DNA of 64,000 nucleotides from the sequence record OP745616; one strand, written 5' to 3'. How positions within the stretch are numbered: position 1 is the first letter of the stretch; the number at the start of each line of letters is the position of its first letter. Under the pieces are notes generated by a model. It had not been told where the DNA came from. It did no database searches and saw nothing but the letters and a program-made list of their open reading frames with translations. The position numbers were made by a program, and so were the translations under genes. Positions 49,403 to 55,725 of this stretch are shown here, piece after piece. Source of the DNA: Escherichia phage E20.

Positions 49403-51673
49403 TTACAGGTTCATGCCAAGAGCCGATGCTGGGTCTTGGCTAGGGTCATAGTATTGGGAACTAAGTGAATAAGCCGGGTCTTGCTGAGCAGCTAAATCAC
49501 GTTCTGGTATAGAGTTCCCGTCAGTCAAAGTATTATATCCAACAGCAGCAGATATGTTGGGGGTAGTTTCCCCTTCTTTAATAGGTGTTGTCAATGCCTT
49601 AGTTATTTGAAGGTTCTGGTTTCCTTGGGATTGTGCTTTTTGTTTTTCCATATCACGAGCATGTTTAGTACCAGATTCCTGTTCCAGATAATCCAGATCT
49701 TTAAGGTCACCAGCAGAAGCAGCCTCTTTAGCCTTAGCCATATTGAGTGCAATCTTACTTTGTAACTCTTCATTCTCAAGCTGTGCTTTCTGAATTGCCA
49801 ATTGCTTAAGCTGTTCTTCCATAGGGTCTGGTTGTGGTTGCCAAGTACGTAACTCATGGGCCAGGTCAGGCATACGTTTAAGTTCTGCAATTTTAGCTAC
49901 AAGAGATAATGTAATAGTCTGGTCAACCGTATTACCCAATGTTTGAACCATGAAGCTCAAGTCCTGGGATTTATGGTTATCAATTTCAGCAGTGTTAATA
50001 TCAACCTCAATGTCGAAGTTACCTTTAAGGTCTTCACGGTTAATCTCTACATACTGCTCGTTAGTAATACGTACTACTTCCTTCTCAGATAAGAACACAG
50101 CATTCATTGCACAAATCTTAGTACCAATATCTGCCATACCCTTAGCTAATCGACGAAGGATTGCCATCTCACGTTTGGATGCTGCATCAAGTGCTCCACG
50201 AATACCAGCAGCCACATCTCCATAAGCTGAACCAGTTACACCACCAGAGAATGCTTTAACACCAGTTAGGGATTCAGCTTCCTGGTTTTGCATCTGGGTC
50301 ATTATTATTGCCGACTGAGGTAACTCAGGGAACTTATGTTCCATAATGGCCTGACTAGGATTGCCCTGCATCGGGTTGTATTCATAGTCTTGCCCATCGT
50401 CATATCGACGGCGGTTTAGTGTATCCAGCATCCCTTTAGGATAACCACGTTGACCATTTGCACTTCGACCTAACAGGTCAATCATCCCACGCATAGTTGC
50501 ACCAAGAATTGCTTGGTTATCTCCTAACAGTTCAGCATCAGCTTCACCGAATAGCTCTCGTTTACGTGGCATGTAAGGAACAACTACCAAAGGTAACTTA
50601 CCATCCGGGAAAGGGTTCTTCTCCATACGAATAAGAGTAGAGCCAATCCAGGTAGCAACAATTGGTTCCAGAGAACCATCATCATTGATGTCGTAAAATC
50701 CCCAGTACTCATAAGCAACGACTTTCTTACGTAGTGCATCCTTAAACTGGAAGTCGCTTGGAGTTTTACTCTCATGGTCTGGATCAGTCATAGGACTGGA
50801 GCTTTCCCAATCAATCTTATCTAAATTGTGGTAACGATCTTTGTTCTTCATGAGGTCTGCTTTACATGTCTCAAACGAGATAACTGCATACAGAGCCTTA
50901 TCCAAATCACCATTACAACTAGGGTCAATAACTACGTTATTAGGGTTAAGCATTTCAACGGTGGGTCTGTTAACCAGTGCCTTCTCTACTTCTACTTCAG
51001 TAACCCCAGTCTGGATTGCATAGGTAGCTTCCCCAGTTTCATTGAAGTAGTTAACAGCTTCTTTAATATCTTCAGGCATTGTTTCATCGTACTCACGAGG
51101 ATTCTCTGCCTGAAGCTGTAAAGCCTGTTGAAGAACATCTGCCTGTTCCTGGTTCTCAATTGGATACAACTGAAATACTGGAGTTTCAGTTTTAATCTTA
51201 ACAGTCTTACGTTCCCAACCAATACGAGCAATACCAGTACCGTCATCTACGACACTGTGTACGTAATCATCTATCAGTTTCACTTTATTAAGCTGGGTAC
51301 GGAATTGGTAGTTAAGAACTAATTCATTCTGACGTGCAGCTAATTCATCTTCAAAAGTAACCGGAGTTACTTTAAAGAGTTTATTAGATGAGAGGAATGG
51401 TTCAGACAATGGAGCATATCGCCACTCTGCCTGACGGCGAACCAGTCTAGGCTGGACTTGCGAACGTCCCTTAACCTTTGGGGGTTTAGCCTTACCCTTG
51501 ACTTCCATCAGGTCATTCCACTCACGAATCTGTGCCATAATCGCATCGTGAGCAGGTTTAGCTGATTCCAAATCACCCTTCAGCAATTGGATACTTGGTT
51601 CCTTCTTCCAGTCCGTTATCTTCTCTGATTGAGCCGGGTCTGGTAAAGGCTTAAAAGTGTCTTGGTGTTCCAT
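49403..51673 (-). CDS. portal protein candidate (N4 gp59-like)
   Basis: 756-aa ORF (N4 portal ~763 aa as I recall) upstream of scaffold-like and capsid genes. Confidence 0.55.
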
Positions 51674-51681
51674 AGTTATTC

Positions 51682-52182
51682 CTATTCAAAAAGTTTACGG
51701 TCAGCCTGAATTTGTTTACCCAACTCAATTAGTTGGTTGTCACGGAGTCTAACAGTTGCCCGGAGTTCTTCAACCAAACGTCTGCCTTCTTCAAGACTGT
51801 TGTCGAGTCTGGCTGCATGGCTTGCAAGACTTCTGCACTCAAGGGTTCCGGCTTCGGCTTGACGTTTATATACCGATGCTCGTCTTTCAGACTGTTGCAT
51901 CCGGCTGTCGTAATCACTGCTAACGCGAGCAAGCTCGCTTGCGTAATTACTCTCAGCCGTCTGCAACCGGGAAGTGAGTAACCCGACTTCATAACTATGG
52001 TTTCTTTGGAGAGCATTGTATTTGTCCTGTAGTTTTTGTATTGCCTTCAGGTCTTCAACCTTTTGGACATCCCACTTCTTTTGAACAGTAGACTGCCCAT
52101 TGGAATTGCCCCAAAAGTAAATGGTGGCCCCGAGGACCACCACCAGAAGATAAGGCCAACCTTTAGAGATTAGCATCTTCAT
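51682..52182 (-). CDS. Rz-like i-spanin
   Basis: N-terminal TM ([16 protein letters not shown]) then coiled-coil periplasmic domain; start assigned to internal Met (MKMLISKG), uncertain; overlaps end of muramidase gene. Confidence 0.45.
51729..51992 (-). CDS. Rz1-like o-spanin embedded in Rz gene (different frame)
   Basis: [32 protein letters not shown] lipoprotein-like signal with lipobox-like TAGC, then short Pro-rich mature peptide (KPKPEP). Confidence 0.4.
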   Translation of the reverse strand: MKSGYSLPGCRRLRVITQASLLALAVITTAGCNSLKDEHRYINVKPKPEPLSAEVLQAMQPDSTTVLKKADVWLKNSGQLLDSVTTN

Positions 52183-52798
52183 TACATGCCTCCAGTGGTA
52201 CATTACCAATTCGGTTAGCTACCCAACCATACGTAAAGTCTGGCATGTTCAATGAGGTGTAGTGGTTCAGCTGTTTAGCATCAAGTAACTTAATCACTAC
52301 CTGACATGCTGCAACTTTGCCTCGTTTTTTCTGTAATGCTTTATATGCATTAACAGTACCTGCACCGACTTTACCATCAACTTGTATTTTAGGGTAGTCT
52401 TTGCCATCACGGGACATTTCATTAAGAGATTGCTGCAACCACTTAGCTGGTCTGGTTACACCGGTATTAACACCAGCATCAACCAGTTTATGTGTTACAG
52501 CAGGAGATATATCAGCGAAGGCTACGAAGTTAGGCTTAAGTACGTAGTCATCAATGTATATCTCAGCAGCCATCTCTTTCGATAAACCCTTCATGGAACC
52601 ATTCCAACCATACTCCGTAGCCAGAACTTCTTTATGAGACTTAGCTACTGATTGGGTAATACCATGATTAGTTTCCCCACCTGGGTCACGGGGATTGTTT
52701 ACGTACCCTCCTTCCATATAAAACACTGCCCCCAGAATAGCAGCGACAACTCCTCCCACTGCACCACCTTTTGCAGCAAGTTTCTGTTTAGCTTTCAT
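52163..52798 (-). CDS. GH108-family N-acetylmuramidase endolysin with SAR-like N-terminus
   Basis: hallmark EGGYVNNPRDPGGETNHGIT motif; N-terminal Gly/Ala-rich weakly hydrophobic segment KGGAVGGVVAAILGAVFY. Confidence 0.7.
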   Translation of the reverse strand: MKAKQKLAAKGGAVGGVVAAILGAVFYMEGGYVNNPRDPGGETNHGITQSVAKSHKEVLATEYGWNGSMKGLSKEMAAEIYIDDYVLKPNFVAFADISPAVTHKLVDAGVNTGVTRPAKWLQQSLNEMSRDGKDYPKIQVDGKVGAGTVNAYKALQKKRGKVAACQVVIKLLDAKQLNHYTSLNMPDFTYGWVANRIGNVPLEACNEDANL

Positions 52799-53114
52799 GA
52801 GAATCTTCCTTTGGATGGAATCGTATTAGTCTGCCTACAATGTTTAGGGCAAACAAAGCGATTGTAATGCTGGAACCATGGGGAATATCTTCAAGGATGT
52901 GACGAGGTAGTCCTGTTAGCATTGGTTGGATAATATCTACAGCAGAAAACAGAATTAACCCAAACGTACTAATCTGAACAGATGCCCACTTCCAGGACTT
53001 CTTCCAGTTAGGTACTAGCCCTATCTTTCTTTTTAGCCTGCAAACCATGCGAATATCTCCCGTCTTGCAGCAGCCAATACACCAATAATTGCACCTGCTC
53101 CAGCCCACACCCAC
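52788..53114 (-). CDS. holin-like membrane protein candidate
   Basis: two predicted TM segments (VQISTFGLILFSAVDIIQPML, SITIALFALNIVGRLI); adjacent to endolysin; true start may be internal Met. Confidence 0.35.
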   Translation of the reverse strand: MGVGWSRCNYWCIGCCKTGDIRMVCRLKRKIGLVPNWKKSWKWASVQISTFGLILFSAVDIIQPMLTGLPRHILEDIPHGSSITIALFALNIVGRLIRFHPKEDSHES

Positions 53115-53365
53115 TTACCAAAAATTCCAGCACCAGCAACTTTATGTTTAATGGTGATGAACTCTTCGATAGTAGGTTCAGACTTAGTGATGCTCTCCTC
53201 TACCCGTTTAAGTCGGGTACTAAGATCGCCCATAGACTCACTTAGTTTTTTAATAGACTCTTCCATTTTCTCCCTTTCCCTCGCTTCTCGGGTTTGGTTT
53301 TCGAAAATGTTTCTCAATCTCTCTTCGAGTCTGGCTAGAGTTACGTTATCTGGTTCATTTCCCAT
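53033..53365 (-). CDS. membrane protein with N-terminal coiled coil and C-terminal TM
   Basis: 110 aa; charged coiled-coil N-terminus, C-terminal GIFGKWVWAGAGAIIGVLAAA TM. Confidence 0.35.
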   Translation of the reverse strand: MGNEPDNVTLARLEERLRNIFENQTREAREREKMEESIKKLSESMGDLSTRLKRVEESITKSEPTIEEFITIKHKVAGAGIFGKWVWAGAGAIIGVLAAARREIFAWFAG

Positions 53366-53435
53366 AGGGACTTTCTCAGGTTAGTTAAGTCGTGATTGAC
53401 TGAAACAGTCTACATAAAGGATTGTTTGGGATACA

Positions 53436-53470
53436 ACAAAAAAGCCCCCAGACGGGGGCTTTGTTTTATT
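53436..53470 (-). terminator. rho-independent terminator (minus strand; bidirectional-looking)
   Basis: stem agccccc/gggggct with loop agac, A-run before and T-run after on plus; reads as stem + ttttttg on minus. Confidence 0.55.
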
Positions 53471-55725
53471 TAGGTGTTATCAGCAACTACCTCAAGTACT
53501 CCGTTATTAGAACGAAGGCGTTTGTAAGTACTATCCCCCACATCTCGGAGTATAATCCCTTTGGTAGCATACATAGTACCGAAACGTCCATCCTTAGAAC
53601 CAATATCCTGCAAGGAATCTGTTACTGCTGTCATAACCCCTGCAACACGATTAACTTTACGGGCATACCAGACATTTTTGCCAACATCTTTATCCATAGC
53701 AACATCGAAGTTAAAGTTTGCAGTATTGGTAGATAAACCATTCATTGCTGCACTAGAAGTATCAACAGTAATCTTGAGAGTACCTCCAGTAAGTCCATCA
53801 GCAGAAACGTACAACTCTGCATTCTTAAAGTTACGAATGCCACCTAGACCATTGGCAAAGGTAACTTTAGATGCATCACCATAAACAATTAACCGATTCT
53901 CTTTGAATCGTTCTGCGTAAAGACCGAAAGGAGTAGCGTCCTGATCTTCAATATTAATTGTTGCATGGTTAGTGTTAATGGTGGGTGGGATACCAAATGT
54001 AATAGTATTCCCTTTAAACTCTTTAACTTTGAAATTCAAACGATACTCATCAGCATAATCATTTGCATATCTGTTCTGAAGTTCACAATCAATAAAGCTA
54101 TAACACTCAAAACCCATAGCAGCAGGCCAGCCAGTATCAATAATACTGCCTATGATGGTTGTGCCTACAAACTTAATATTACGGGCATTACCAGCATTGG
54201 ATACAGCACCCTCAGAGTGCATACTATGTAGCACGCCACCCACAACCAGAATATCGTTAACAGTCCCCGGTACGGATACAGTCTGGAATGCACACTTACC
54301 GGTGTTAACAATTTTAGGGTTAATAACACGAATGTTGTAAGGGTTTCCCCCTTCAGCTTCAATATCAATACCTGCTTCCGGTCCGGTATAATGAGTACCA
54401 ATCCCACCAGCTTTATTGCCTGAGCGGGTAATTACTGGATTAATGATATCAATGTTAGCTCCACCAGTCAGGGAGTAGCAGTTGCGCCCACAGGAATCCC
54501 AGTAACAGTCTTCAATAACAGTGCGTGGAACAATATCCAAGAAACTGAAGCTACCGGTAGATTGATGATATAAGCCATCTACAGGCGAATTAAGGTATTT
54601 ATGTCGGTAAACACGAGCACCTGCTGACTGGTTAATCCACATGTTATAACAAGGAATCTGATAACCAGTGTTACCAAACTTACCCCCCCATACAGCAGAG
54701 GCTAAGTTACCATCACTGGTCCCACCATTAATTACGACGTTAGGTGCTTTGTACAGTTTAATAAGAAAACCTTGGTAAGCCATATAGCTATAATCAGGGG
54801 TTTCAGCTACAACATCCGGTGCAATAGAACCAGTAACAGGATCAAAAGCCCCTAAACGCATACCGTCATTAATCTTAAGTGTCCAGTTACTCATCTCCAG
54901 TTCGATATTAGCATCCGTCATATGAATGGAGAACCAGCCTTTAGCAGAAGCATCTGTCCAGGCACGCTGCTCATAGGAAGGTTTATAAGAACCACCCTGA
55001 CCAGTAGAACCAGTGAGATACTGGGAACCTACTAAACTAGTGCCAGCAGGGAATATCACCTTAACCGGTTCAGTTACCTGTGTGCTTAAGTATTGACCCA
55101 ATTCCCAAAGAGCGTCTGCGTTATCAGCAGAGTCAACAGTTACACCAAAATCCGTAGCATAGATTACACGTCTACCCATTAAATCCATGTTAGCAGCTAC
55201 GTTGGTATTAATTGCATTAGGCATACGAACATAGGGAACTTCTTCAGACTTAACTAATGGGCTTAACTTACTCCAGGCATCATTAGCTACACCACCTGAG
55301 TTTTCTGGTGTAGAGGATGCCGGGACAACTTTAGGGAATGCACCATTCCAAATATAATACTCACCATTATGAATCAGTCTTTGGTTTTTAACGGTAAGGG
55401 TAGCCCCAGTAGTAAATGAACCGGGAGAGTTAATATACTCCTTACGTTCTACAGCCAGAGCACCTAAGTCAACATTACCAGCAGAGTGAACTAATACCCC
55501 AGCAGGACTAAGACTTACAGCAGTAACACCTGAACCAATATCAGCAGGTAAGGAGTAAGCACGCTGTGACGCTTTGTCATAGATGACTTTATAACCGCTT
55601 AGTACAGCACCAGTAGAGAAGTAAACAACCTCAGATTGCTTAACCCCAAAGTGACGGGCTACTGCTTGTTTGTTGGTTAAGATTCCAGTTGAACCCTTAC
55701 CACCTTGTGAAAACATTTCGTTCAT
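53470..55725 (-). CDS. tailspike/tail fibre protein (beta-helix-type) candidate
   Basis: 751 aa; Gly/Asn/Thr-rich repetitive beta-strand composition typical of phage receptor-binding proteins; position before terminase module. Confidence 0.45.
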   Translation of the reverse strand: MNEMFSQGGKGSTGILTNKQAVARHFGVKQSEVVYFSTGAVLSGYKVIYDKASQRAYSLPADIGSGVTAVSLSPAGVLVHSAGNVDLGALAVERKEYINSPGSFTTGATLTVKNQRLIHNGEYYIWNGAFPKVVPASSTPENSGGVANDAWSKLSPLVKSEEVPYVRMPNAINTNVAANMDLMGRRVIYATDFGVTVDSADNADALWELGQYLSTQVTEPVKVIFPAGTSLVGSQYLTGSTGQGGSYKPSYEQRAWTDASAKGWFSIHMTDANIELEMSNWTLKINDGMRLGAFDPVTGSIAPDVVAETPDYSYMAYQGFLIKLYKAPNVVINGGTSDGNLASAVWGGKFGNTGYQIPCYNMWINQSAGARVYRHKYLNSPVDGLYHQSTGSFSFLDIVPRTVIEDCYWDSCGRNCYSLTGGANIDIINPVITRSGNKAGGIGTHYTGPEAGIDIEAEGGNPYNIRVINPKIVNTGKCAFQTVSVPGTVNDILVVGGVLHSMHSEGAVSNAGNARNIKFVGTTIIGSIIDTGWPAAMGFECYSFIDCELQNRYANDYADEYRLNFKVKEFKGNTITFGIPPTINTNHATINIEDQDATPFGLYAERFKENRLIVYGDASKVTFANGLGGIRNFKNAELYVSADGLTGGTLKITVDTSSAAMNGLSTNTANFNFDVAMDKDVGKNVWYARKVNRVAGVMTAVTDSLQDIGSKDGRFGTMYATKGIILRDVGDSTYKRLRSNNGVLEVVADNT

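Follow-up and report, generated by a model that had tools for sequence, protein, structure and literature searches.

The 64,000-nt stretch of Escherichia phage E20 DNA analysed here (OP745616; the window) very probably contains a multigene lysis cassette of a G7C-like podophage of the N4 family, with a mechanism that can be read by homology with the N4 cassette. The initial annotation had placed a lysis cassette at 51682-52798. A cassette was confirmed there, but this extent was too short, and two more membrane-protein lysis genes carry it to 53365. Five genes lie on the minus strand in the order gp63-like, gp62-like, gp61-like and gp60-like, with gp60'/gp60a inside the last (Table 1), and the portal gene follows directly downstream. 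The source is a G7C-like N4-family podophage (Gamaleyavirus), and the cassette region was 97.6% identical in nucleotide sequence to Escherichia phage ST4 over 1.8 kb and 96.2% identical to G7C. Synteny and annotation agreed with G7C, Bas96, Mimir124 and N4, and Pfam/PHROGs-type family matches were obtained for all cassette proteins except the o-spanin. A GC-rich hairpin occupies the gap that separates the tailspike stop (53470) from the gp63-like start, and is possibly the upstream boundary or an attenuator of the lysis/portal transcription unit. A promoter consensus scan of the coding strand found none.

Table 1. Coordinates of the lysis cassette and associated features in the window.
Feature	Coordinates	Strand	Basis
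Lysis cassette, complete N4-type	51682-53365	minus	gene order, domains, motifs
gp60-like i-spanin (Rz), 166 aa	51682-52182	minus	phrog_6197, sequence, alignment, identities
gp60'/gp60a-like o-spanin (Rz1), wholly inside Rz, +1 frame	51729-52016	minus	ORF, conservation, relatives' annotation
Candidate lipobox T-A-G-C, Thr at -3	51897-51908	minus	sequence, PS51257-type match
gp61-like endolysin, 211 aa, predicted GH108 N-acetylmuramidase + PG_binding_3	52163-52798	minus	Pfam, phrog_315, identities
Putative SAR-type segment of endolysin, aa 11-28 (GGAVGGVVAAILGAVFYM)	52715-52768	minus	hydropathy, composition, alignment
gp62-like gene, 86 aa, two TMDs (aa 23-41, 60-78)	52788-53048	minus	Pfam DUF7940, phrog_1356, Kyte-Doolittle windows
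gp63-like gene, 110 aa, putative pinholin	53033-53365	minus	ORF, phrog_5211 (3.9e-49), N4 gp63 identity
GC-rich hairpin, terminator-like on both strands	53441-53462	.	consensus scan only

The GH108 assignment made for the endolysin was borne out: the hallmark EGGYVNNPRDPGGETNHG was present at residues 29-46, Pfam Glyco_hydro_108 (PF05838) matched residues 24-113 at 71.9 bits (gathering cutoff 21.2; 6.6e-20), and identity to N4 gp61 was 67%, or 70% over the catalytic body. Further matches were to PG_binding_3 (PF09374; residues 117-196, 31.1 bits with the cutoff at 24.6, 2.8e-7) and to phrog_315 (endolysin; 1.3e-41). The protein was 96% identical to G7C gp61 and had PDB relatives in 6v3z and 6v40. 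The EGGY motif, which in GH108 reportedly contains an essential Glu, is E29-G-G-Y32, and the column reads EGG[Y/W] in 16/16 aligned relatives. Family membership is supported by these matches; muramidase activity on peptidoglycan has been demonstrated for N4 gp61 only (bioRxiv 10.1101/2025.11.12.688109).

The N-terminus of the endolysin reads MKAKQKLAAK-GGAVGGVVAAILGAVFYM-E29, and the bracketing residues are K2, K4, K6 and K10 upstream and Glu29 of EGGY (52712-52714) immediately downstream. This stretch is the most hydrophobic in the protein. Kyte-Doolittle windows and Hessa-scale sums failed to set it apart from the cassette's remaining TMDs; only Gly/Ala composition did, its share being 47-58% where the Rz and gp62 TMDs have 16-18%. 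The arrangement of four Lys, an 18-residue Gly/Ala-rich segment and E29-GGY is kept in 16 relatives, which represent over 10 genera, and the segment aligns residue for residue with the SAR domain of N4 gp61, G15 being the partner of N4 G12. N4 gp61 is a SAR endolysin by experiment: it is membrane-associated, its holin-independent lysis is slow, delayed and gradual, its rapid-lysis mutations, such as G12E, put negative charge into the segment, and it complements endolysin defects with a canonical holin or a pinholin alike (bioRxiv 10.1101/2025.11.12.688109). Composition, flanking lysines and alignment with this experimentally supported domain support the reading of the N-terminus as SAR-type, as the initial annotation had suggested.

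The pinholin candidate, the gp63 homologue, lies two genes upstream of the endolysin. It has an N-terminal cytoplasmic coiled-coil, a 'Receiver' motif PTIEEFITIKHK (residues 64-75) and a C-terminal Gly/Ala-rich TMD (residues 81-99), and was 60% identical to N4 gp63, with Receiver and TMD almost identical. N4 gp63 is a pinholin that complements S21 but not S105 (bioRxiv 10.1101/2025.11.12.688109), and by this homology the gp63-like protein is probably a pinholin as well. Two allelic N-terminal cytoplasmic domains, swapped by recombination within the gene, were observed for the gp63-like pinholin. The gp62-like protein matched Pfam DUF7940 (52.7 bits) and phrog_1356 'holin' (7.7e-29) and was 53% identical to N4 gp62; its open frame can be extended to GTG 53114 (108 aa). 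The N4 protein is described as a triggerable regulator of lysis that is not essential and has a dual start (bioRxiv 10.1101/2025.11.12.688109), and its homologue is likewise a putative holin-like lysis regulator.

Both frames previously assigned to the endolysin and the Rz-like gene were recovered on the minus strand, 52163-52798 as the 211-aa ORF and 51682-52209 as an open, Rz-like frame. The Rz character of the latter held (phrog_6197, Rz-like spanin, 3.8e-77), but not its start at TTG 52209: GGAGG at 52189-52193, 6 nt before ATG 52182, makes the ATG the most likely start, and from there the 5' end of Rz overlaps the 3' end of the endolysin by 20 nt. Rz was 98% identical to G7C gp60 and 56% to N4 gp60, and gave no match in an NCBIfam search. 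An N-terminal TMD (residues 8-24, nt 52111-52161) is followed by a helical periplasmic domain; SpaninDB predicts 93.5% helix in the periplasmic domains of the G7C and PhAPEC5/7 i-spanins (PMC6139136). For a homotypic disulfide to form, one spanin subunit or the other must carry one or more Cys in the periplasm (Kongari 2018). Rz supplies a single one, Cys117, kept in most but not all aligned relatives, and mature Rz1 has no Cys beyond the lipidated one.

An Rz1 gene embedded out of frame in Rz had been proposed, and was found in the +1 frame at 51729-51992/52016. Its candidate starts, ATG 51992 (87 aa) and ATG 52016 (95 aa), give the same 56-aa mature lipoprotein. Counted from ATG 51992, the gene begins 190 nt past the Rz start and stops 47 nt before the Rz stop, offsets identical to those of the PhAPEC5 and PhAPEC7 entries in SpaninDB (PMC6139136 supplement), where G7C, PhAPEC5/7, EC1-UPM and N4 form one embedded family ('emb', family N4) (PMC6139136). 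The embedded gene is already annotated in G7C, Bas96 and Mimir124. Mature Rz1 was identical to that of G7C and 80% identical (45/56) to N4 gp60a, though the whole Rz reached only 56%; N4 gp60/gp60a fully complemented lambda Rz/Rz1 amber mutants (bioRxiv 10.1101/2025.11.12.688109).

Pfam, PHROGs and NCBIfam searches with the o-spanin gave no match, and because these collections hold no profile for it, conservation was shown directly from the loci. A homologous +1-frame lipoprotein ORF was present in the Rz genes of 59/59 distinct relatives from many genera; neither a failure of such conservation nor a missing TM segment or lipobox, both named beforehand as possible refutations, was seen. The first pass with a lipobox regular expression missed five of the 59 and picked the wrong box in one, and inspection found the homologous ORF in all six, where the box deviates (NGC, LAGC after Y, NAC, PGC) or the Cys comes earlier. 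When synonymous codons of Rz were resampled, 3.3% of the trials produced an out-of-frame ATG-ORF of at least 87 aa and 0.34% a lipoprotein-like one, so the ORF by itself is only modestly unlikely. Over all sequences, wobble entropy in Rz fell from 1.69 and 1.64 bits in the two flanks to 0.75 bits exactly where mature Rz1 overlaps it, and within the clade with the TAGC lipobox alone, 49/78 wobble sites were variable outside the overlap versus 15/56 inside (Fisher p = 5e-5). Its conservation in every relative examined and the lost wobble variation over the overlap show that the ORF is real, and an embedded Rz1 under dual-coding constraint is supported.

No strong Shine-Dalgarno sequence was found beside either candidate start (51992, 52016). 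It is the ATG at -39 (52016), not the usually annotated one at -31 (51992), that is conserved across the Gamaleyavirus/Moovirus-like clade. A start at TTG -11 was rejected for want of a basic n-region, as was a lipobox 'SLPGC' at ORF residues 6-10, which has no hydrophobic region before it.

The codon of the candidate acylated Cys is 51897-51899, and the residue is at position 32 or 40 depending on the start used. The mature N-terminus would be C-N-S. Under the Lol-avoidance rule, Asp at +2 bars sorting to the outer membrane; since +2 is Asn here, Rz1 has no inner-membrane retention signal. The non-canonical lipobox with T at -3 that had been pointed out is present: TAGC fails the strict consensus [LVI][ASTVI][GAS]C through its Thr, though it lies within the PROSITE PS51257 lipoprotein pattern, which allows T at -3, and Lys/Arg occur in the n-region. 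The description of the product as a lipoprotein-like, Pro-rich peptide stood in its first part only, because Pro accounts for 4/56 residues (7%) and is concentrated just locally, in KPKPEP. Every one of the 14 distinct sequences in the Gamaleyavirus/Moovirus-like clade had TAGC, which was confined to them, other genera having L/I/V and rarely S, N or P variants; T at -3 is thus a trait of the Gamaleyavirus/Moovirus clade. It was already catalogued in 2018, when EC1-UPM was listed with 'TTAG' in SpaninDB (PMC6139136).

The endolysin N-terminus could also be an ordinary cleavable Sec signal peptide, with the enzyme secreted in soluble, active form. Its position, basic n-region and hydrophobic core would suit this, and small residues (…ILGA|V…) are loosely compatible with the -3/-1 rule, but no A-X-A-type site lies ahead of E29 and the hydrophobic stretch passes straight into the catalytic EGGY. 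An active muramidase secreted constitutively would moreover cause early host death, and the behaviour of N4 gp61 (membrane association, delayed and gradual lysis without a holin, charge gained in the segment by rapid-lysis mutants) points the other way, so that secretion of this kind is highly unlikely. A permanent signal anchor, from which the enzyme would act while tethered as gp62/gp63 made large holes instead of pinholes, would fit the Kyte-Doolittle hydropathy of the segment (1.78), equal to that of bona fide TMDs of the cassette, and the annotation of gp62-family proteins as 'holin'. It is barely conceivable, given a Gly/Ala content typical of SAR domains, the function of N4 gp61 with a pinholin, and the failure of N4 gp63 to complement a canonical-holin defect. 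A releasable SAR segment is the preferred reading.

A comparable doubt attaches to Rz1, whose ORF in this clade could be decaying or non-lipidated if Thr at -3 and a leader of 31-39 aa blocked Lgt/LspA, outer-membrane disruption then being dispensable or otherwise done. The unmatched strict consensus and the weak Shine-Dalgarno sequences would agree with such a loss, as would the absence from the Gamaleyavirus/Moovirus clade of the Met at -15 found in N4, because of which the n-region is long; spanins are also dispensable in some laboratory conditions. Against this, the frame was open throughout in the 14 TAGC-clade sequences, TAGC and the 56-aa length were invariant, wobble sites in the clade were less variable over mature Rz1 (15/56 vs 49/78, p = 5e-5), PS51257 permits the Thr, and SpaninDB holds many deviant working lipoboxes, one of which, AWAC, has been validated by experiment. 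Decay is accordingly judged very unlikely and Rz1 is read as a working o-spanin. That the Thr(-3) lipobox, the missing proximal Met and the resulting 31-39-residue leader are adaptive and not neutral drift, and could slow or gate o-spanin maturation, is an unlikely idea, as is the separate one that through the allelic N-terminal domains of gp63-like proteins lysis timing or lysis inhibition could be tuned in one way in G7C-like phages and in another in N4.

On the model of the characterised N4 cassette, the GH108 muramidase would be exported by the Sec system and would remain anchored in the inner membrane through its Gly/Ala-rich, presumably weakly hydrophobic SAR segment, the catalytic glutamate of EGGY sitting at the membrane surface. 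The C-tail-anchored gp63-like pinholin would trigger, form pinholes and depolarise the membrane, whereupon the SAR segment would be released and the active muramidase would degrade peptidoglycan all round the cell; the gp62-like protein with its two TMDs may modulate the timing. The Rz i-spanin and the 56-residue lipidated o-spanin in the outer membrane would then disrupt that membrane by fusion, the o-spanin, translated from the nested +1-frame gene, presumably binding the C-terminus of Rz.

The cassette is well conserved but ordinary and brings nothing new in kind: in close relatives it has already been annotated and catalogued, and its function tested. Its importance outside correct annotation is small: the window carries an N4-type cassette that is complete, with a predicted SAR endolysin, a predicted pinholin and an embedded spanin. 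Nested o-spanins are often overlooked by automatic gene callers, and in several close GenBank records this one is missing or the genes are labelled 'hypothetical' or 'tape-measure'. Three small additions are the dual-coding signature of the N4 spanin family put into numbers, a TAGC lipobox fixed in the Gamaleyavirus/Moovirus-like clade, and the -39 ATG as the clade-conserved o-spanin start in place of the -31 ATG of the usual annotations.

The closest known system was gp63-gp62-gp61-gp60/gp60' of vB_EcoP_G7C (HQ259105, Gamaleyavirus), alike in gene order, overlaps and lengths, with proteins 95-98% identical. Only point differences were seen, such as an A/V exchange in the signal peptide of the o-spanin and a small number of residues across gp61-gp63. 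The G7C gp60' is annotated as longer, with an upstream extension that a stop codon closes in the window. The N4 cassette gp60/gp60a-gp61-gp62-gp63 (Stojkovic & Rothman-Denes 2007; Awuah et al., bioRxiv 10.1101/2025.11.12.688109) shares the five genes and their order, the Gly/Ala-rich SAR segment adjoining EGGY, the 56-aa mature o-spanin whose embedded +1 frame stops 47 nt short of the Rz stop, and the Receiver motif of gp63, T65 and T71 included. Identities to N4 were 53-67% except for mature Rz1 (80%), and the N4 functional data come from a preprint. In N4 the lipobox is canonical, IVGC, and a Met stands at -15, but the window has TAGC and Mets only at -31 and -39; the alternative start Met17 of N4 gp63 is a Leu in the window.

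Lambda Rz/Rz1 is similar in having a type II inner-membrane helical protein and a small outer-membrane lipoprotein gene entirely inside it in the +1 frame, but sequence similarity was undetectable and SpaninDB places it in a separate family. The Rz1 of the window does not have the Pro-rich centre or penta-proline of the lambda Rz1-type proline-rich o-spanins (family defined in PMC6139136), and its 4/56 Pro compare with 8/41 in phage 21 Rz1 (PMC6139136). Unlike lambda, the window has its single candidate disulfide Cys in Rz (C117), and Rz1 has none in the periplasm beyond the lipidated Cys. With phage 21 R21 and P1 Lyz, together with S21, the cassette would share a common logic, an N-terminal, weakly hydrophobic, Gly/Ala-rich SAR domain activated by pinholin depolarisation. 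The catalytic fold is unrelated, being that of a predicted GH108 muramidase and not of a T4-lysozyme-like GH24 enzyme, and P1-type disulfide caging is impossible because the SAR segment has no Cys. The putative pinholin of the window has a single TMD and is C-tail-anchored, whereas S21-type pinholins have two TMDs.

The region 51600-53400 matched 93 phage records by megablast, the best being Escherichia phage ST4 (97.6% identity, full length), then F22, PhAPEC5 and G7C (96.2%); all belong to the genus Gamaleyavirus among the N4-like Schitoviridae. The initial annotation had placed the lysis genes at 51682-52798, which covers the last three genes of the cassette but misses two upstream membrane-protein genes belonging to it. 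Adjacent cassette genes overlap by 11-20 nt, and 8 nt separate the Rz stop from the start of the portal gene.

Features of the lysis cassette and its upstream border, in window coordinates.
Feature	Coordinates	Strand	Length	Remark
Tailspike gene	53470-55725	minus	751 aa	upstream of cassette
GC-rich hairpin	53441-53462			between tailspike stop and gp63-like start
gp63-like ORF	53033-53365	minus	110 aa	
gp62-like ORF	52788-53048	minus	86 aa	
Endolysin (gp61-like) ORF	52163-52798	minus	211 aa	
Rz (gp60-like) ORF	51682-52182	minus	166 aa	GGAGG 6 nt 5' of ATG
Rz1 ORF	51729-51992 or 51729-52016	minus	87 aa or 95 aa	nested in Rz, +1 frame

The Rz protein matched PHROG 6197 ('Rz-like spanin', 3.8e-77) and has an N-terminal transmembrane domain (TMD) at residues 8-24, the remainder being long and helical. 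The precursor encoded by the 87-aa Rz1 ORF consists of 31 residues, the lipobox Cys and 55 more residues. It is lipoprotein-like, as had been proposed, but with Pro at only 4 of 56 mature residues it does not count as proline-rich by the standard of lambda Rz1. When Rz was resampled with synonymous codons, an out-of-frame ATG-initiated ORF of at least 87 aa arose in 3.3% of trials, and a lipoprotein-like one in 0.34%.

The evidence we regard as decisive for an Rz1 ORF beyond chance is comparative. Fifteen annotated relatives and 52 IMG/VR loci yielded 59 distinct Rz genes, with identities to the window Rz down to ~31%. All 59 contained a homologous +1-frame ORF with a signal peptide and Cys, the mature product being usually 54-59 aa (full range 54-69 aa) with the conserved core ...INVKPK.EPLS...LQAMQP.ST..LKKAD.W..NSG.LLDSV.... 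In the codon alignment, Rz third-position entropy was 0.75 bits under mature Rz1, below the first-position entropy there, versus 1.69 and 1.64 bits in the flanks outside the overlap. Among the 14 close-clade (Gamaleyavirus/Moovirus-like) sequences, 15/56 wobble sites were variable inside the overlap versus 49/78 outside (Fisher p=5e-5). This wobble suppression is the signature expected of dual coding and shows that the Rz1 frame is under selection in exactly the clade carrying Thr at -3. The embedded o-spanin and its conservation in relatives are thereby borne out. In Burkholderia phage HN03 (locus L010, 1601-2353) the Rz frame continues 250 aa beyond the usual stop, which reflects either a genuine C-terminal extension or an error of sequencing or annotation; its record annotates only the embedded ORF, as 'Rz/RzI'.

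Rz1 fits a PROSITE PS51257-type lipoprotein pattern and fails the strict [LVI][ASTVI][GAS]C consensus because its -3 residue is Thr. This non-canonical lipobox, already remarked on in the initial annotation, reads TAGC in 14 of 14 distinct close-clade sequences and nowhere else in the 59-gene set, the other genera having L/I/V or, in a few cases, S, N or P. Asn at +2 would be compatible with outer-membrane sorting. Many o-spanin lipoboxes are deviant, and one (AWAC) has been validated; SpaninDB lists the EC1-UPM lipobox as 'TTAG' (family 'N4') and G7C, PhAPEC5 and PhAPEC7 as 'emb', with an 87-aa o-spanin that matures to 56 aa (Kongari et al. 2018, PMC6139136). The window Rz1 offsets equal those of PhAPEC5 and PhAPEC7 (190 and 47 nt), and the G7C entry instead places the start further upstream, at offset 76 (PMC6139136).

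There are two candidate Rz1 starts, numbered back from the Cys. The -31 ATG (51992), the start that is usually annotated and the one chosen in SpaninDB and Bas96, is absent from an IMG/VR relative of 84% identity (L024) and from Klebsiella phage KP8; the -39/-40 ATG (52016, AGGA 8 nt 5') occurs in every member of the clade as well as in KP8 and N4. N4 has an extra Met at -15, giving a conventional 15-aa leader, and for EC1-UPM one SpaninDB table proposes a non-ATG 'LRVITQ...' start (PMC6139136). The mature lipoprotein is the same from either window start.

The endolysin exceeded the Pfam cutoffs for Glyco_hydro_108 (71.9 bits) and for PG_binding_3 (31.1 bits) and matched PHROG 315 'endolysin'. 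Among its relatives are GH108-type muramidases of known structure, for example 6v3z. The motif quoted for the endolysin, EGGYVNNPRDPGGETNHG, lies at residues 29-46. Its N-terminus reads MKAKQKLAAK - GGAVGGVVAAILGAVFYM - E29: four Lys, an 18-residue uncharged stretch and, without a gap, the EGGY glutamate, a layout shared by 16 relatives that span more than 10 genera. Gly and Ala make up about half of this stretch versus 16-18% of the Rz and gp62 TMDs; simple hydrophobicity sums alone did not demonstrate that its hydrophobicity is 'weak'. N4 gp61 is a membrane-associated muramidase that complements endolysin defects with a canonical holin or pinholin, causes slow lysis without a holin, and yields rapid-lysis mutants when negative charge enters its SAR (signal-anchor-release) segment, e.g. 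G12E (bioRxiv 10.1101/2025.11.12.688109). G12 aligns with window G15, and a 2015 genome note (PMC4319500) had already assigned the N4 protein to the SAR endolysins. Homology to N4 and composition thus favour the proposed SAR-type reading of the Gly/Ala-rich N-terminus; the GH108 muramidase claim is supported as well. Cys165 and Cys205, in the C-terminal half, are invariant across 16/16 aligned relatives; the SAR segment itself contains no Cys. It is plausible that a structural disulfide forms after export, and P1-Lyz-type disulfide caging is not plausible.

The 110-aa protein is an orthologue of N4 gp63, a pinholin that complements S21 but not S105 and is lethal upon CCCP triggering (bioRxiv 10.1101/2025.11.12.688109). 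The Receiver motif PTIEEFITIKHK, with the T65 and T71 positions at which N4 rapid lysers carry mutations, is conserved in the window protein, as is the C-terminal TMD. The 86-aa two-TMD protein (DUF7940; PHROG 1356 'holin') is orthologous to N4 gp62, a non-essential lysis regulator that triggers slowly (bioRxiv 10.1101/2025.11.12.688109). Its frame is open 5' to GTG 53114 (52788-53114, minus), giving 108 aa and resembling the 109-aa form and dual-start motif of N4 gp62; the better Shine-Dalgarno (GGGAGA, 7 nt 5') belongs to the 86-aa form.

Nucleotide similarity is lost 5' of ~53214, inside the pinholin gene (53214-53365), in many Gamaleyavirus genomes (Mimir124, IME11, Uz-1, ECBP1, K57alpha1.2 and others). 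The N-terminal cytoplasmic coiled-coil (aa 1-60) occurs in two allelic types, one in the window, G7C and Bas96 and the other in Mimir124, near-identical to KP8; the Receiver and TMD are common to both. The pattern suggests a recombination breakpoint within gp63, adjoining the variable tail-fibre module. The tailspike, whose sole Pfam match is the N-terminal Tail_spike_N, compares with 851 aa in G7C gp63.1 and 642 aa in Bas96, and is probably an exchanged receptor-binding module. The hairpin (9 bp, T-runs on both strands) looks like a bidirectional terminator; a 'terminator' is annotated somewhere within the matched region in the PhAPEC7 and SP5M records.

Genes, motifs, architecture and selection are thus established for the window sequence; all elements of the initial annotation are real and its interpretation is supported. 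We infer the biochemical steps of lysis from N4, whose model is the most likely mechanism. The muramidase would be Sec-exported and membrane-tethered, depolarisation by the pinholin would release the SAR segment, peptidoglycan would be degraded, and a Rz/Rz1-type complex would then disrupt the outer membrane.

The cassette is already known: the G7C record annotates it, SpaninDB (2018) catalogues it, and in N4 it has been characterised by experiment. In the G7C record gp62 is a putative holin, gp61 an N-acetylmuramidase and gp60 an Rz/Rz1 spanin, with gp63 also annotated and gp60' described as 'embedded within ORF60'; Bas96 has an 87-aa 'o-spanin' at exactly matching coordinates, and Mimir124 marks the embedded gene by a manual misc_feature. 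Most of the phage records compared, RefSeq N4 included, omit the embedded o-spanin, and many of them wrongly label the gp63 orthologue 'tail length tape-measure protein'. The G7C proteins are 95-98% identical to those of the window, with an identical mature o-spanin; identities to N4 are 60% (gp63), 53% (gp62), 67% (gp61), 56% (gp60) and 80% (mature o-spanin).
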